64,000 bases of DNA, taken from Klebsiella phage Miami. The stretch's first letter is position 1. The number at the start of each line of letters is the position of its first letter. The position numbers and the translations under genes are program-made. The stretch is from the sequence record MT701590.1. One strand, written 5' to 3'. The notes under the pieces were generated by a model. The model was not told the origin of the DNA. It saw only the letters and a list, made by a program, of their open reading frames with translations, and did not search any database. Positions 2,634 through 8,885 of the stretch are shown here, in pieces.

Positions 2634-3166
2634 TGACTGCTCGTTGGTTCGCAGGGGATTTCCATTTAGGAGATCCTTCTATTATCAAATACCGTAAACA
2701 GTTTAAAACGGTAAAAGAGCACGATGAATTTATCGCCGATACGATTTTGGTTAAGCCTCGTGATCACGACGTGTTAACCATCGTTGGCGACGGATTCATT
2801 AAACCCGAATCGCTGTTCATCCTGAAGAAATTCCCGTATAAGAAACATCTTATCCCGGGGAATCACTGTATGGAGAAAGGCGTTAAGGTTACCGATCTTG
2901 CTGCTTTCTTCGACGTTGTTACCGGATCGTTTAAATGGAAGAGTGGGTTCTTCGTATCCCATGAACCTCAGCATCCTAATCATCTCCGAGGTCGCATCAA
3001 TATCCATGCTCATTTGCATGATAAAGTGATCGAAGACGAACGTTATATCGGGGTGTCGTTAGAACAAACCGGCTATCGTTTAATCCATCACGATGAGATC
3101 TTATCTGGTTCTTATCGTACTTATCGCAAACCAACCCTTGAAGACCATTTACATTTAGGAGAATAG
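2633..3166 (+). CDS. calcineurin-like metallophosphoesterase
   Basis: MPP motifs GDFHLG, VGDGF, GNHC, INIHAHLH; clear paralog of 17086..17883. Confidence 0.7.
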   Translation: MTARWFAGDFHLGDPSIIKYRKQFKTVKEHDEFIADTILVKPRDHDVLTIVGDGFIKPESLFILKKFPYKKHLIPGNHCMEKGVKVTDLAAFFDVVTGSFKWKSGFFVSHEPQHPNHLRGRINIHAHLHDKVIEDERYIGVSLEQTGYRLIHHDEILSGSYRTYRKPTLEDHLHLGE

Positions 3167-3168
3167 CC

Positions 3169-3465
3169 ATGGCTCGTAAACCTTCTACCGTAGGCGAGAT
3201 TATTAAGAAAGAGTATCTCGAACCGATGAACATGAGTATGATGGAACTCTGCCGTCGGACTCATTCAAGCAATGCCGCTATTTCCCGTCTGCTTAGCGGG
3301 AATACTCGTCTGAGTATTGAGATGGCGTTTAAACTCGCTAAGCTCTTTAACACAACTGAAGAGTTTTGGTTGAATCTTCAACGTCAAGTAGATCTTTACG
3401 AAGCTAAGCGAGATAAAGAGCTTAAGGCGACGTTAAAGAAAATTGTTCCCATTAGTAAGGTGTGA
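3169..3465 (+). CDS. higA: HigA/VapI-family (COG3093) HTH antitoxin-like protein, no HigB partner present
   Basis: EYLEPmnmSmmELcrrthsSnaaISRLLsGntRLSiEMAFKLAKLFnTTeEFWLNLQrqVDLYE matches my recollection of the HigA antidote consensus almost position for position. Confidence 0.75.
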   Translation: MARKPSTVGEIIKKEYLEPMNMSMMELCRRTHSSNAAISRLLSGNTRLSIEMAFKLAKLFNTTEEFWLNLQRQVDLYEAKRDKELKATLKKIVPISKV

Positions 3466-3812
3466 TAATGAGTCCGTTTAATATTTATTTTTCTGCTTCT
3501 CCCCTGGGGTCCGCTATAGGGTTAGCGATCTTGCTAGTCCTTGGGTGGTTTTTTATTTACCGCAGCCCTACAGCGATTAATCAAGTTATCGGTAAACAGA
3601 AACGCGTCTACGTTGTTTTGTTCGTCCTGGTATTTTTTATCGGGAGTTGTTTTAATATAGGTACTCGGCAAGCTGAGCTTAATCGTTCTCAGTTCGACGC
3701 CCAGATGAACACTGAGATCATCAAGAAATCACCTACCTCCACGGAAGTCTTCGATGCCCGTGGTAACTTTAATCAAGCGTTAGATAAAGCAAAAAAGGAA
3801 AATGAACAATGA
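3462..3812 (+). CDS. small 2-TM membrane protein
   Basis: ATGA overlap with higA-like gene; two hydrophobic helices. Confidence 0.5.
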   Translation: MIMSPFNIYFSASPLGSAIGLAILLVLGWFFIYRSPTAINQVIGKQKRVYVVLFVLVFFIGSCFNIGTRQAELNRSQFDAQMNTEIIKKSPTSTEVFDARGNFNQALDKAKKENEQ

Positions 3813-4675
3813 AGAAACTTTTCTCAATTGTGGGATTAGTGATGATTGCAACTTTACTCTCTGGATGCGGTCAAATCGTAGAACCTGGTTTTAAAGCCAA
3901 GTTCCTTTCTTCCAGTGGTTACAGTAACGAGATCAAGGAGCCGGGTAAATATCAAGTTTGGTGGGGCGAGAAGTTGATTAAACTTGATACCTCGACCAAA
4001 GCGATATCCATTCCTCTCACTGTTAAGATGGCGGATGAAATGGATTTATCCTTTAGCGTTAACTTCCGTACCCGAGTCGGGGGTAACGATAAAGTCCTGA
4101 ACGCCATGTTTAACGACATTCGGCCTCAGGATACTGATAAGGGTCTGATCATCTCCTTAGATCAGGTATTCTCGGTTTACGGTAATGACGTAGTGAGTAA
4201 CGTTGCTCGTTCCGTAGTGGGGAAATACAAAGTCAGTGAGGTCTCTAAAAACTACGACACAATCAACGAGCAGCTTCAGGCTAAGTTAATCGAAGCGATG
4301 AAGAACAACCCGCTGGAAGTGTCCAACGTGACCGTCGCTAACATTACCTGGCCTAAAGTCATTACTGACGCCATCGAAAAGCAACAAGAACGTGAACTGG
4401 CAATCAAGACAGAAGAAAACCAGCAAGCTATAGAAATGGTCAAACGCACTAACCAGCTCAAACTCGCCGAAGCTGACCGAGAGATCGAACTCACTCGAGC
4501 GAGAACCCTGCGAGATCAGAACGCCATTACCGCCGATGGATTAAGTGATAAACTCATCGCTTATAAAGCGTTAGAGGTTCAACAATCCATGACAGATAAC
4601 AAGTCGGCGGTGTTTGTCCCTTATGAAGCGTTCAATGCACCCGGATTGTCCAACCGAATCTTTAGTGCCAAATAA
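3809..4675 (+). CDS. SPFH/band-7 (HflK/C-prohibitin-like) lipoprotein
   Basis: Signal peptide plus lipobox LLSGC; band-7-like core followed by EKQQERELAIKTEENQQAIE coiled-coil typical of the SPFH family; ATGA overlap with upstream gene. Confidence 0.5.
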   Translation: MKKLFSIVGLVMIATLLSGCGQIVEPGFKAKFLSSSGYSNEIKEPGKYQVWWGEKLIKLDTSTKAISIPLTVKMADEMDLSFSVNFRTRVGGNDKVLNAMFNDIRPQDTDKGLIISLDQVFSVYGNDVVSNVARSVVGKYKVSEVSKNYDTINEQLQAKLIEAMKNNPLEVSNVTVANITWPKVITDAIEKQQERELAIKTEENQQAIEMVKRTNQLKLAEADREIELTRARTLRDQNAITADGLSDKLIAYKALEVQQSMTDNKSAVFVPYEAFNAPGLSNRIFSAK

Positions 4676-4729
4676 TTAACAATTAATCTGGTTGGATAAG
4701 TCCAACCAGATTACTTTTACTTTAGGAGA

Positions 4730-5323
4730 ATGATGATGATCAACTGCTTAGAACCTAACGAATTCGTTCAGTTTAAAGAACAGTGGGATAAATATCTCGA
4801 GGAGGGTCTTCCCGGACTCGATGAAAGAATGAAGGGTCCGATGCTGATCCTGAACGCAATACCTGGGGTAGCGACCCGCTTTTGTTGTTCCGGTCATACC
4901 TTTGAAGAAAGGTTATCATCCCACCCGACCAAAGCGTATTCTCGAGTGCAGAAAAGGAACTTCATTTTTGTCGTTGAAGAAGGTCATGCCGATATTTTCT
5001 TTGCGTTTGAGATACTCTTCAAATTATTGAACAAAGACGAGTTTAGTTTTTGCCGGCCTTCTTTAGAAACCACTCTGCTCAAGAAAAACTTTGGTGAGTC
5101 GGAAACCTATCCGGTTTGGGTATTCGAAATGAATTGGGTTTACGAACTCACCGAGGAAGAAAAAATAAAGGGAAGGGATAAGACCCAGAAAGAACTTTGG
5201 GAGAAACTCCTCAGAGGACTGTTCATGATCACCGATCCAAAGGAACGCCATAAACACCGGGATATTCTGACCGAACCCTATTTCGACCAACCAGGACTTA
5301 TTAGGAAAACACATAATGTTTGA
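4730..5323 (+). CDS. hypothetical protein, translationally coupled to nadR
   Basis: 197-aa ORF overlapping the nadR start by 8 nt. Confidence 0.5.
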   Translation: MMMINCLEPNEFVQFKEQWDKYLEEGLPGLDERMKGPMLILNAIPGVATRFCCSGHTFEERLSSHPTKAYSRVQKRNFIFVVEEGHADIFFAFEILFKLLNKDEFSFCRPSLETTLLKKNFGESETYPVWVFEMNWVYELTEEEKIKGRDKTQKELWEKLLRGLFMITDPKERHKHRDILTEPYFDQPGLIRKTHNV

Positions 5324-6425
5324 TATCGGCATCGTCGTTGGTAAATTTGCCCCTCTCACCCAGGGGCACATCAACCTCATCACCCAAGCCTCCCTCCAGG
5401 CTAAGAAAGTTATCGTTGTGTTAAGTCATGACAGTCGCTGGTTAGCGCAACAATGTCCTCGTGATCAGAAGGCGTTGACGTTCACTAACCGTCTTCGTTG
5501 GTTACAGCAGCATTACGCCGATTCTGACCACATTGATATTAAATATATCATCGAAGATGACATCCCGGAATTCCCCAACGGATGGAGCGCTTACTGTAAC
5601 CTCCTCAGGAAGATCTACACTGAGGAACAGCACAAGAACTATAAAGGAATCGGATCAGTCGACAACACTCGTCGGATTGCTCAAACCGTGGCCATTTTCA
5701 GTAGTGAAATCGATTACGATAAAGGTTACGAGGAGCATCTTCCTGAAGTCAGTCACGTCGTCGTTGATGCGCATCGTACAGCGGTTCCCATTAGTGCGAC
5801 TAAAATTCGTGAGAATCTTTACGCCAACTGGGAATACCTCCCTTCTATTGTTCGTAAGGACTACACCAAACGGATTGTCATCCTCGGCCAGGAATCTTGC
5901 GGTAAAAGCGTCATGGTCAAGAATCTGGCTAAGATGTTTAATACGTCCTGGGTAGAGGAGTACGGTCGGACGTATTGTGAAACTGAGCTCTGTGGTTCAG
6001 AATCGACACTCCGTAGTGATGATTACCCGATCATCGCTTATCGCCATAAGGAACTGGAAATCCAAGCAATGCGTTCGGCTAACCGCATTTGCATCGTGGA
6101 TACGAACGCATTCATTACCGAGTACTACCATCGGTTGTATGAAGGCAAACCTAATCGTATCGTCTCTGCTATAGCAGCTGAGGAAAACTACGATCTGGTC
6201 ATCGTGCTCGAACCTACGGTGGAATGGGTTGATGACGGCCTTCGTAGTAATCCCGAAAGACAACGGACGACCGAATTATTTAACCTCATGAGTCTGGAGT
6301 TCCCTAACCAGTTCCCGGAAGGAAGAACGTTCCATATTTCTTCCCCTGATTACAAAGTTAGGTTCGACCAGGCTTACGAAATTATCAAAACCTTCACTCA
6401 GCGTGTTAACTCAGGTGAATTTTAA
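5316..6425 (+). CDS. nadR: bifunctional NMN adenylyltransferase / ribosylnicotinamide kinase (NadR catalytic domains, no N-terminal HTH)
   Basis: GKFAPLTQGH (HxGH nucleotidyltransferase motif), RLRWL, ISATKIRENLYANWEYLP, Walker A ILGQESCGKSVMVKNLAKMFNTSW..EYGRTY and DLVIVLEPTVEWVDDGLRS all match my recollection of E. coli NadR. Confidence 0.9.
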   Translation: MFDIGIVVGKFAPLTQGHINLITQASLQAKKVIVVLSHDSRWLAQQCPRDQKALTFTNRLRWLQQHYADSDHIDIKYIIEDDIPEFPNGWSAYCNLLRKIYTEEQHKNYKGIGSVDNTRRIAQTVAIFSSEIDYDKGYEEHLPEVSHVVVDAHRTAVPISATKIRENLYANWEYLPSIVRKDYTKRIVILGQESCGKSVMVKNLAKMFNTSWVEEYGRTYCETELCGSESTLRSDDYPIIAYRHKELEIQAMRSANRICIVDTNAFITEYYHRLYEGKPNRIVSAIAAEENYDLVIVLEPTVEWVDDGLRSNPERQRTTELFNLMSLEFPNQFPEGRTFHISSPDYKVRFDQAYEIIKTFTQRVNSGEF

Positions 6426-7121
6426 ATGAAAGAACTTTTTAGCGTAATCTATACTGATTTCCAGAGCGGATGGAGTCGTAAGGAATGGCTGTGGTTAGTC
6501 GTAGCCGTCTCGGCTGTTGTAGTTGGGAGTATTTCCGCTTCGCCACTGGAATTCTGGGCGGGGATATTCAACGTCGTCTGCGTTATTCTTGTTGCTAAAG
6601 GCCGACTCTCCAATTACTATTGGGGGCTATTAGGGGTGGTTCTCTACGCGATCGTTTCCTACAAGCAACAACTCTACGGCAACATGGCGCTTAACGTCAT
6701 TTACTTCGGATTCCAATTCTGGGGTATTTACGAATGGCGTAAAACACTGCTGAATAAGACTGATGCTGGCGTTGACGTATCCGTTAGGCGATTGTCACTC
6801 CTTCAGTTCCTTCAGATGACGTTCGTTGTTTTGGCAGGGACCTTTGCAGTAAGCTTGTTCCTTCGTCATATCGGGGATAGTTCACCCGTATTAGATGCGT
6901 TTACGATGGTAGCGAGCTTAATCGCTATGGGCTTGATGGTTAAACAGTATTCCGAACAATGGTTACTCTGGATACTGGTCGATATCGCTTCTATTTACAT
7001 GTGGGTCATTCCTGCTTTAGACCAGCCTGGTTCTTGGTCCATGGTAGCAATGTGGACGGTCATCACCGGTAACGCGCTGTACGGCGCTTACATGTGGTTT
7101 GTTGTTAAGATAAATAAATAA
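6426..7121 (+). CDS. pnuC: nicotinamide riboside transporter PnuC
   Basis: Multi-TM 231 aa; LSNYYWGLLG, WGIYEWRK and DAFTMVASLIAMGLMVKQYSEQWLLWILVDIASI match my recollection of E. coli PnuC. Confidence 0.9.
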   Translation: MKELFSVIYTDFQSGWSRKEWLWLVVAVSAVVVGSISASPLEFWAGIFNVVCVILVAKGRLSNYYWGLLGVVLYAIVSYKQQLYGNMALNVIYFGFQFWGIYEWRKTLLNKTDAGVDVSVRRLSLLQFLQMTFVVLAGTFAVSLFLRHIGDSSPVLDAFTMVASLIAMGLMVKQYSEQWLLWILVDIASIYMWVIPALDQPGSWSMVAMWTVITGNALYGAYMWFVVKINK

Positions 7122-7150
7122 ATAATTCCGACAATAGAGGATAAAATATC

Positions 7151-7852
7151 ATGCGTAAGAACTATGACATTAATGCCACTTCAGACGACGTCTTCTTTAA
7201 TCACTCTAAATCATTTAAGCTGGTGAGAAAAGCGATTAAGAAGATCGGTTCAGCAAAATGGGAGGGGGTTTTTAGTGACCCTACCCAAAATGCTGCCCGT
7301 GGGTATGATGAAGAGCGATTTGATAACGTCCTCCGCGCCATGTATTCTGAAGATTTGGCGAGGACCTTGGATTTTGCTATTCATCGCAACGAGATTGCTC
7401 GAATCGATATCGCCATTATGATGATGAAACCTGAAACCAAAATCGATTACCATTTTAGGCACGACATCCCCTATCGTCAATGGGGATTTCTTAGTTTCCG
7501 ATCTGATTTAACAATTACCAGCGCGGATCAGCTCGACAACAATCCCTTTTTCTTCACTACGCTCTTGCGGGAGCTCAAAAGAGCGGGGATTTACGATTAC
7601 AACGTGAACGCGATCAGCGAGCTTTATCAACTTGTACATCTGGCCTCTATCGCGCTGTCGTACACTGGTTTGAGTGGATTGGGGGAATCGGATTCCTACC
7701 AGAACGCAATCGGTGTCGCCATGCAGGTAATTCGTCGTTGGGGCGCGGGAGAGAGTTCTGAAGTTATGAGTGATCTTGATCGAGCCACTCAGATTTGGTC
7801 GCCTTCGGAATCGGACTATGTTAAGTTTTACGAAGAATTGATCATCGGATAA
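7151..7852 (+). CDS. hypothetical protein
   Basis: 233-aa ORF. Confidence 0.5.
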   Translation: MRKNYDINATSDDVFFNHSKSFKLVRKAIKKIGSAKWEGVFSDPTQNAARGYDEERFDNVLRAMYSEDLARTLDFAIHRNEIARIDIAIMMMKPETKIDYHFRHDIPYRQWGFLSFRSDLTITSADQLDNNPFFFTTLLRELKRAGIYDYNVNAISELYQLVHLASIALSYTGLSGLGESDSYQNAIGVAMQVIRRWGAGESSEVMSDLDRATQIWSPSESDYVKFYEELIIG

Positions 7853-7951
7853 CGAAGCGTAATTAAATTTAATAGTATGGTCAGTCGACCTAGGTGAGAG
7901 TGATCTTGTGGGTTACTCTCATTCCTTTCGTAAATATCGGAGAAATAAAAA

Positions 7952-8467
7952 ATGGCTAAAGAAAACGTTGTTCGTATTCCACTGTATAATTTAGGTAATC
8001 TTTCTTGCGTAGGGTATCGAGAAGGGTGCGGGTATAACGTTAAGATTTATTGGGGCGATTATGTGCTGGCCTCTAAACCTAATCTCACTCAAGCGCTCGA
8101 CTTCGCTTATATCGGGGTTCGGCTCTTCTCCCCGATCCACAGTGAATGGTTAACCAACGATCTGCGTTTAGCTATTTGTGAATCGTTGATAAAAGCCCGT
8201 TTATTAATTGATGGCAATCATAGCGTGGAGCGTTCTTCTGTTCTTTCAGAGGGATTCCTTAAGCATTGGAAAACAGGTGAATCGGGGGTAGAGTATTATC
8301 TGGAAGTACGTCTTGCTAGAGACCCGGGTAAAATAGAAGACGACATCGTTCAAGTCACCTTAAAGTACGACAACGATGGGTGCAGCTTCACACATAGCTT
8401 CAAGAAATACGCTTCCGTTTTCAACTATAAAGAACATTTAGGTCTTTTCAAACAAGTTACCCGCTGA
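7952..8467 (+). CDS. hypothetical protein
   Basis: 171-aa ORF followed by a hairpin. Confidence 0.5.
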   Translation: MAKENVVRIPLYNLGNLSCVGYREGCGYNVKIYWGDYVLASKPNLTQALDFAYIGVRLFSPIHSEWLTNDLRLAICESLIKARLLIDGNHSVERSSVLSEGFLKHWKTGESGVEYYLEVRLARDPGKIEDDIVQVTLKYDNDGCSFTHSFKKYASVFNYKEHLGLFKQVTR

Positions 8468-8475
8468 GTCAACCT

Positions 8476-8506
8476 AACTCCTACTCCCGATAAGGGAGTA
8501 GGAGTT
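8476..8506 (+). terminator. hairpin of the TCCTAC family (AACTCCTACTCCC / GGGAGTAGGAGTT), weak T-tract
   Basis: 13-bp stem with 5-nt loop right after the stop of 7952..8467. Confidence 0.4.
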
Positions 8507-8554
8507 ATTACACATGTAAATAAAAACAGACCTTTATTATCTCTATGTGGAATA

Positions 8555-8574
8555 AACCATAATCTTTTTAGGAG
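8555..8574 (+). repeat. 20-nt element AACCATAATCTTTTTAGGAG (copy 1) upstream of a GTG start
   Basis: Identical 20-mer recurs at 30515..30534; both copies precede GTGAAC starts. Confidence 0.5.
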
Positions 8575-8582
8575 CATGTAAC

Positions 8583-8885
8583 GTGAACATCTATTTAGTT
8601 AAACCAATGGAATTTACTGGCGACGAAGATATCAACGGTATGGTCGTTGTAGCACCTGACACCAACACCGCCTTGCTGACCCACCCTCATATCGACGCAG
8701 ACGGCAATACCTTCGAATGGGAAGTCGAAACCAATTCTGAAGCCGGTAACTGGGTGGATGATGAGGGCCGAACTGACATCTTCCACGGTTGCGCTTGGCC
8801 GGCTCCTGATCGTTTACACTGTGTTCTGTTGGGCGTAGCCGCCGACGGGATGGAAGAAGGTATCGTGTTGGTCGATCGTGATTAA
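8583..8885 (+). CDS. small highly acidic protein (GTG start)
   Basis: TAGGAG RBS then GTG; about 25% Asp+Glu. Confidence 0.45.
   Translation: MNIYLVKPMEFTGDEDINGMVVVAPDTNTALLTHPHIDADGNTFEWEVETNSEAGNWVDDEGRTDIFHGCAWPAPDRLHCVLLGVAADGMEEGIVLVDRD

Follow-up and report, generated by a model that had tools for sequence, protein, structure and literature searches.

A predicted NARP3-type NAD+ reconstitution module in a Klebsiella jumbo phage

Does a large phage carry its own route from nicotinamide riboside (NR) to nicotinamide adenine dinucleotide (NAD+), and what would such a route serve? The question is raised by positions 4730-7121 of a 64,000-nucleotide stretch of Klebsiella phage Miami (sequence record MT701590.1), referred to here as the window, where the original prediction placed a three-gene module made of a NadR devoid of the helix-turn-helix (HTH) domain, a PnuC transporter directly downstream of it, and an upstream gene for a protein of 197 amino acids. 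The analysis presented here indicates that the NadR–PnuC pair very probably represents a NAD+ reconstitution module of the NARP3 type, known from the T5-like Escherichia phage Bas30, in a jumbo phage of ~250 kb with Klebsiella-like hosts.

The NadR-like enzyme and the PnuC-like transporter

Four tightly spaced open reading frames (ORFs) are found on the + strand in this part of the window (4730-5323, 5316-6425, 6426-7121, and 7151-7852), the second and the third of which form the pair in question:

5316..6425, + strand: predicted bifunctional NadR-like enzyme without HTH, 369 amino acids, with Pfam, NCBIfam, PHROG, and PDB matches
6426..7121, + strand: PnuC-family transporter, predicted to carry nicotinamide riboside, 231 amino acids, with Pfam, NCBIfam, PHROG, and 4QTN matches

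The stop codon of the NadR gene, TAA, occupies positions 6423-6425, and the PnuC start codon ATG begins at 6426 in the same orientation, leaving zero spacer. The tight arrangement of the two genes thus holds as predicted, and the coordinates and order originally given for all three ORFs are correct.

The 369-amino acid protein bears two Pfam domains, CTP_transf_like at residues 6-166 (E=5.9e-5) and AAA_28 at residues 186-323 (E=6.8e-29). It passes the NCBIfam model NF005988 (NadR) with 256.4 bits at a cut-off of 201 and is matched by PHROG 3462, “nicotinamide-nucleotide adenylyltransferase”, with E=1.9e-126. Since NF005988 is aligned only from profile position 65 to 405 of its 411 positions, the protein can be said to lack the N-terminal HTH: it begins right at the motif (MFDIGIVVGKFAPLTQGH) of the nicotinamide mononucleotide (NMN) adenylyltransferase (NMNAT), and the HTH repressor domain of canonical NadR is absent, so that the phage enzyme cannot act as a host nad repressor. 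The best match among solved structures is PDB 9x6f/9x6h (Bas30_86), aligned over the full length with E=2.5e-139, followed by NadR from H. influenzae (1lw7, E=3.7e-53), the E. coli-type NadR (8x7f), and NadR from L. lactis (6gye). At the level of sequence, 5316-6425 is therefore confirmed as an HTH-less NadR with a predicted N-terminal NMNAT and a predicted C-terminal ribosylnicotinamide kinase (RNK), and both the family placement and the missing HTH domain are borne out.

Catalytic motifs were inspected in an alignment of the window NadR with 13 other phage NadRs and the H. influenzae enzyme. The adenylyltransferase half carries TQGH (within GKFAPLTQGH) and ISATKIR, which agree with the (H/T)xGH and ISxTxxR patterns, and the kinase half bears an intact Walker A motif GQESCGKS, an IVDTN segment with a Walker-B-like Asp, and the lid segment WVDDGLR. 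A degenerate Walker A motif, which would have spoken against the original prediction, is thus not what is found. As to the HxGH motif named in the original prediction, it is likewise not degenerate, but its actual form here is TQGH, i.e., TxGH; the T5-like orthologue from phage S113 and the active Bas30-type enzyme have TRGH at this place. The NadRs of the window clade also possess a lineage-specific insertion of ~18 residues in the NMNAT domain (roughly residues 100-121), whose length varies within the clade.

The comparison with Bas30_86, to which the window NadR is 60% identical across 350 aligned positions, can be brought down to individual residues. Chain 9x6f was taken to be Bas30_86 because a numbering offset of 6 residues makes all 17 residue names given in PMC13464706 fit this chain (17/17). 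According to the same paper, mutation of each of 13 Bas30_86 residues (K10, F11, S37, E80, P84, G89, F110, S112, D115, V139, I141, E230, and D275) reduced NAD+ regeneration, and all 13 are identical in the window NadR. With K163 and D164, which are kept too, the agreement reaches 15 of the 17 named residues; R167/K168 alone differ, being K185/R186 in the window protein, and neither of the two figures among the residues mutated by the authors.

The 231-amino acid product of the adjacent gene is confirmed, again by profile matches, as a member of the PnuC family, in line with the placement proposed earlier. It scores 148.5 bits with PF04973 (E=2.5e-43, cut-off 27.3) and 129.1 bits with the PnuC equivalog model TIGR01528 (cut-off 42.45), and it is matched by PHROG 1880 (E=3.2e-53) and by the structure of N. 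mucosa PnuC, 4QTN (E=3e-33). Its motif in the sixth transmembrane segment, W179-L-L-W182-I-L-V-D186 (WLLWILVD), fits the family pattern WxxW(x)3D/N. The NR-binding residues were mapped through the S113 orthologue, which shares N45, Q94, and N180 with Bas30_87, the PnuC partner of Bas30_86. Two of these three residues are kept in the window protein, N49 (N45 of Bas30_87) and Q97 (Q94). The TIGR01528 score and the coupling to NadR point to NR as the likely substrate.

Comparison with known pathways and the probable role of the pair

That phage NadR combines a nucleotidyltransferase with an NR kinase in one fused protein was noted in a 2022 survey of the NAD+ systems of viruses (PMC9503650). Osterman et al. 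(2024; bioRxiv 10.1101/2024.02.11.579819) observed that phage NadR usually shares an operon with PnuC and proposed the two as an additional NAD+ reconstitution pathway. Finally, Yan et al. (Sci Adv, August 2026; PMC13464706) gave the name NARP3 to the operon of an HTH-less NadR (Bas30_86) and PnuC (Bas30_87) in phage Bas30 (TrudiRoth) and reported crystal structures of Bas30_86 (9X6H, 9X6F). As described in that paper, both genes are needed, and the pair restores NAD+/NADH depleted by Sir2-HerA and also counteracts DSR1; expressed from plasmids, it rescues T7 and lambda 10^3-10^4-fold in the case of Sir2-HerA, and the rescue depends on NR with a half-maximal effective concentration (EC50) of 3.6-5.6 µM. 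The NadR–PnuC module is thus already known: its prediction dates from 2024 and its experimental validation and crystal structures from 2026, it is covered by PHROG families, and the GenBank records of near-identical phages annotate both genes, as ribosylnicotinamide kinase/NadR-like and as PnuC. The transporter-coupled NR route, put forward in the original prediction as a distinct solution, has thus been described before, and as a discovery the locus adds little to a pathway whose structure and counter-defence role have been published.

The resemblance to NARP3 is close. In both cases, a phage two-gene cassette has NadR followed by PnuC in the same order and orientation, with a NadR that lacks HTH and combines NMNAT and RNK domains; to the 13 identical mutated residues one can add N45 and Q94 of the transporter. 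The differences are mostly those of distance and context. Besides the 60% identity of the NadRs, the window PnuC is ~44% identical to the S113 orthologue and has D186 in place of N180 of Bas30_87; the window NadR has the NMNAT insertion and the swap to K185/R186; the window genes have no intergenic spacer and share their variable segment with an ORFan gene for a 233-amino acid protein; and the window module belongs to a ~250 kb jumbo phage, unlike that of Bas30, a T5-like siphovirus of ~110 kb.

Bacterial NadR and PnuC (from Salmonella, E. coli, and Haemophilus influenzae; 1LW7, 8X7F, 4QTN) belong to the same families and operate by the same principle of facilitated NR uptake and trapping by RNK and NMNAT. 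In contrast to them, the window NadR has no N-terminal HTH repressor domain, and the window genes form one tight viral cassette much nearer in sequence to other phage copies: the window NadR is 57-64% identical to other phage NadRs but only 36-38% to bacterial ones, and bacterial PnuC is 38% identical to the window PnuC. NARP1 (Adps and Namat) and NARP2 (Nampt and NMNAT), described by Osterman et al. (2024), lead to the same result, NAD+ restored by the phage in the face of defences that deplete it. However, NARP1 recycles ADP-ribose and nicotinamide, NARP2 uses nicotinamide via NMN, and neither has a transporter or needs an external precursor, unlike the window module.

By analogy with NARP3, PnuC (6426-7121) would insert into the host inner membrane and let external NR enter by facilitated diffusion. 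The kinase domain of the HTH-less NadR (5316-6425) would trap NR by ATP-dependent phosphorylation to NMN, and the NMNAT domain would adenylylate NMN to NAD+. The NAD+ so formed may offset its depletion by NADase-type abortive-infection systems and, more generally, sustain the NAD+ level during infection. The present analysis shows how the genes are built and to which families they belong, how far catalytic and binding residues are conserved, and in what phage context and gene order the pair lies; transport, both enzymatic steps, and the counter-defence effect were shown by others for a homologue, at 60% identity for NadR and ~44% (versus S113) for PnuC, and are attributed to the window pair by inference. 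In this form, the predicted logic of import, phosphorylation, and adenylylation is supported by both family assignments, the intact motifs, and the 13 conserved residues, and the anti-defence role suggested for the pair has been demonstrated for the homologous NARP3 operon, where it acts against Sir2-HerA and DSR1 in an NR-dependent manner (PMC13464706).

Several points weigh against so close an equation with NARP3. The model TIGR01526 (nadR_NMN_Atrans) gives 264.4 bits with the window NadR, under its cut-off of 341.15 bits. Direct experimental proof comes from the homologous Bas30_86/87 alone, and, as stated in PMC13464706, its authors could not test the module in a native phage. Close relatives can do without the module: NadR–PnuC is lacking in phiKp_32 and VB_ZK_P1, and deletion scars are seen in phiKp_32 and in the metagenomic sequences L021/L022. 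Moreover, sequence does not separate counter-defence from general NAD+ supply, and both may apply. Finally, the third NR-binding position, N180 of Bas30_87, is occupied by D186 in the window PnuC, the N180A change in Bas30_87 abolished NR binding (PMC13464706), and an Asp at this motif position is carried by the thiamine transporter PnuT (PMC5749112).

The last point opens the way to another explanation, namely that an Asp-type Pnu transporter carries thiamine or another nucleoside, so that the pair would make no route from NR to NAD+. The family motif WxxW(x)3D/N ends in Asn in N. mucosa PnuC, as it does in the S113 orthologue, and in an essential Asp in PnuT (Shewanella woodyi; Jaehme et al. 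2018, PMC5749112), with which the window protein shares the Pnu-family motifs and the terminal Asp. However, the window protein fits the PnuC equivalog model TIGR01528 (129 versus 42 bits), the remaining two NR-binding residues are conserved, and the gene directly follows a NadR gene whose NR-kinase domain is intact, rather than being coupled to thiamine metabolism; no thiamine kinase or thiamine-related gene lies near the module. In addition, two PnuCs encoded directly beside NadR, one from Lactobacillus phage LpeD and one from Leuconostoc phage phiLM33_01, have Asp at the same position, and for this reason D186 is treated here as a natural NadR-linked variant. A substrate other than NR is accordingly regarded as very improbable. 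A milder version, in which the Asp-type PnuC might show an altered or broadened substrate specificity relative to the Asn-type Bas30_87, was weighed jointly with the alternative of a three-gene unit discussed below, and the two taken together appear improbable. Whatever its effect, the natural replacement of Asn by Asp at a position essential for NR binding offers a simple case for structure–function work.

A weightier alternative accepts the same biochemistry but sees the selected role in general metabolic NAD+ support for a large phage with a heavy nucleotide and redox demand, regardless of defences. Medium-sized and jumbo phages are enriched in genes for NAD+ synthesis (PMC9503650), and 68 of 174 “NAD-jumbo” phages possess pnuC, which was read as a sign of independent NAD+ synthesis (a 2024 Microbiome paper, PMC11662467). 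Among the metabolic genes in the counterpart region of Klebsiella phage KPN8 are those for thymidylate synthase and thymidine kinase. On the other hand, the 10^3-10^4-fold rescue by the homologous operon, as presented in PMC13464706, is specific to Sir2-HerA, with DSR1 being countered as well, and dispensability of the module in close relatives is in keeping with a conditionally useful counter-defence gene. Metabolic support as the selected role is judged somewhat unlikely; the two roles are not mutually exclusive.

Relatives, distribution, and loss of the pair

The phage origin of the window is confirmed by its collinearity with five ~250 kb phage genomes at 92-98% nucleotide identity. Over positions 4600-7900, the identity is 96.7% with Stenotrophomonas phage BUCTxx100 and 92-93% with the Klebsiella phages KPN8 and YC1, each of which has a genome of ~250 kb, and over positions 40000-64000 it is 94-98% with these three phages as well as with phiKp_32 and Raoultella phage VB_ZK_P1. 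The synteny expected in homologous jumbo phages was found, since NadR–PnuC is present in KPN8, YC1, and BUCTxx100. The KPN8 region matching the window has genes for β-like proteins of a multisubunit RNA polymerase, for a chaperonin, and for the enzymes thymidylate synthase and thymidine kinase, with no further NAD gene among the annotations.

A wider survey by tblastn covered 50,697 phage records, of which 791 contain a NadR homologue and 812 a PnuC homologue. The numbers of records with NadR and PnuC are nearly equal within genera: 45/45 for Klebsiella, 38/38 for Escherichia, 174/176 for Salmonella, and 24/24 for Bacillus. Vibrio phages are the largest group with such homologues (349 and 401 records). 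The closest copies of the window NadR and PnuC come from enterobacterial phages, KpZh_LPS_45 and KpXa_1 (64%/51%), with the T5-like phages at 57-60%/44%. A search of IMG/VR with the PnuC alignment yielded no more than two loci, both T5-like, and gene order was therefore compared in individually chosen, diverse loci. Across these otherwise unrelated phages, the two genes are adjacent in T5-like S113, GAP32, ICP1, Aeromonas Akh-2, Vibrio D308, LpeD, and phiLM33_01, nearly adjacent in Sophrita, and separated by 3-6 small ORFs in KVP40 and 4MG. In PMC13464706, the NARP3 authors counted 124 operons, mostly in T5-like phages of Salmonella and Escherichia, and described them as “largely restricted to Enterobacteriaceae phages”; this figure is probably an undercount caused by their BLAST strategy. 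NARP3-type pairs thus extend well past the published 124 operons, the 45 Klebsiella-phage records included.

Three further elements flank the pair:

4684..4713, + strand: terminator-like hairpin and T-rich tail, downstream of the SPFH lipoprotein gene and upstream of the 197-amino acid gene
4730..5323, + strand: gene for a 197-amino acid protein of unassigned function (PHROG 7413), overlapping the NadR start by 8 nucleotides
7151..7852, + strand: ORFan for a 233-amino acid protein of unassigned function, inside the segment 5263-7866 that is absent from phiKp_32

Phage phiKp_32 lacks two segments of the window. One is 3445-4720, with a 116-amino acid membrane ORF and the SPFH lipoprotein gene, and the other is 5263-7866, which comprises the last codons of the 197-amino acid gene, NadR, PnuC, and the 233-amino acid ORF; at the second junction, an exact 18-nucleotide leftover of the pnuC 3′ end is preserved. 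VB_ZK_P1 is considered to be without NadR–PnuC because its megablast match has the same limited extent as that of phiKp_32. In L021 and L022, the 197-amino acid gene is followed by an 81-nucleotide pnuC 3′ leftover (88% identical) and then by a 35%-identical homologue of the 233-amino acid protein. Judging from their sequences, the pnuC leftovers in phiKp_32, L021, and L022 are deletion scars, and therefore the NadR–PnuC module was probably ancestral in this jumbo clade and was lost more than once.

The two independent deletions share almost the same left junction, at about codon 180 of the 197-amino acid gene, and differ in the length of the pnuC 3′ leftover, 18 versus 81 nucleotides. The junctions correspond to window positions 5262-5281, 7041-7121, and 7867, to 6543-6603 in L002, and to 495-605 in L021; microhomology was inspected there by eye only. 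The shared left junction may mark a recombination hotspot.

Deletion in related phages might also be taken to mean that NadR and PnuC are decaying passengers without a present function in the window phage. Yet both ORFs are full-length, and all catalytic and binding residues tested are kept, bar one change that the family allows. In clade members whose adjacent 233-amino acid ORF is only 73-83% identical, NadR is 95-97% and PnuC ~91% identical, a difference that suggests constraint on the pair. Decay is hardly credible on these grounds, and a functional NARP3-type module remains the preferred reading. The presence of the pair in the window phage, KPN8, YC1, and BUCTxx100 versus its absence from phiKp_32 and VB_ZK_P1 provides near-isogenic phages for a test of NARP3 in its native context. 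Klebsiella jumbo phages with clean deletions of the module are also relevant to the choice of therapeutic phages against K. pneumoniae carrying Sir2-HerA or DSR.

Genes and elements around the pair

The 233-amino acid ORF should be considered first, as it lies in the same deleted segment. Among the 50,697 phage records it is found only in YC1, BUCTxx100, and KPN8; among 5.8 billion proteins it has 8 homologues, all on the same phage backbone, and a profile search of 1.84 billion representatives gave no further relatives. It has no Pfam, NCBIfam, PHROG, or PADLOC match, and AlphaFold yielded no confident structure, with a predicted local distance difference test (pLDDT) score of 36 from the single sequence and 46 with an alignment. 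The family has an invariant core, NPFFFTTLLRELKRAGIYDY. The allele in L021/L022 is 35% identical, whereas the flanking genes are 92-96% identical, which suggests allele replacement or very fast evolution. Since a homologue survives in L021 in the absence of NadR–PnuC, the 233-amino acid ORF is probably an unrelated passenger. The alternative that NARP3 in the jumbo clade might be a three-gene unit, with the ORFan (7151-7852) modulating the pathway, falls under the same joint low estimate as the altered specificity of the D186 transporter.

The upstream 197-amino acid gene ends with a TGA codon at 5321-5323, within ATGTTTGA, and the NadR ATG begins at 5316, which gives the 8-nucleotide overlap. 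Its product has no Pfam or NCBIfam match, only the functionally unassigned PHROG 7413, and no PDB relative at E≤1; only three close homologues were found. A ~30%-identical homologue is encoded by Salmonella phage SA002, with no annotated NadR or PnuC nearby. The gene was considered as a component of the module, as in the original prediction, and rejected, because it persists where NadR–PnuC has been lost (phiKp_32, VB_ZK_P1, and the metagenomic L021/L022) and because the overlap is absent from KPN8 and YC1, where the gene stops 14 nucleotides before NadR. The gene is an upstream neighbour of NadR, with which it probably forms one transcription unit.

The hairpin at 4684-4713 has a perfect stem of 13 base pairs (TAATCTGGTTGGA/TCCAACCAGATTA) with a folding energy of -19.8 kcal/mol (z = -5.2; 0 of 200 shuffled sequences fold as well) and is terminator-like when read on either strand. 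It probably ends the upstream transcription unit and so would mark where the unit with the pair is bounded on its upstream side. A scan for sigma-70 promoters produced matches no more numerous than in shuffled sequence.

The accessory segment 3445-4720, which contains the 116-amino acid membrane ORF (3462-3812) and the SPFH/Band_7 lipoprotein gene (3809-4675), is shared with KPN8, BUCTxx100, and L019 and is missing from phiKp_32, YC1, and L020. Its SPFH product has counterparts in the Erwinia jumbo phages Joad and RisingSun, at 71-72% identity, and in PAK_P3-like and ~300 kb jumbo phages of Pseudomonas, at 55-58%. In T5-like S113, a Band_7 lipoprotein gene directly precedes NadR, and this arrangement, along with the joint absence of the SPFH gene and the pair from phiKp_32, had prompted the idea that this lipoprotein is a third partner of the module. 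This candidate was rejected: YC1 and L020 carry the module without SPFH, the family occurs mostly in Pseudomonas phages, which are not among the listed genera with NadR or PnuC matches, the gene is distant from NadR/PnuC in KVP40 and AhP_Mru1, and the similarity to the S113 lipoprotein is merely E=4e-4 over 88 amino acids. On this comparative evidence, the SPFH gene is regarded as independent of the NadR–PnuC module.

Still further upstream, positions 3169-3465 encode a 98-amino acid HTH_3 (Xre-type) protein, which the phiKp_32 record lists as an antitoxin of the HigA family and which is preceded by a 177-amino acid protein that is a putative metallo-dependent phosphatase according to the KPN8 annotation. 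No HigB-like toxin was noticed near 3169-3465, where no dedicated search for one was made.

No tRNA genes were found in the whole window (1-64000), nor any Rfam family or riboswitch at the gathering threshold; a single sub-threshold noise match lies in 3000-8600. In KPN8, the counterparts of the window's far end are genes for β-like subunits of a multisubunit RNA polymerase and for a 2269-amino acid “endolysin”. BUCTxx100 (OR529409.1) was deposited as a phage of Stenotrophomonas maltophilia, yet it is 96.7-97.3% identical to Klebsiella/Raoultella phages across the window, so that either its host label is questionable or its host range is unusually broad. Finally, just 3′ of a 171-amino acid ORF (7952-8467), the 33 nucleotides at 8475-8507 match their own reverse complement in related phages and constitute a conserved palindrome or hairpin.

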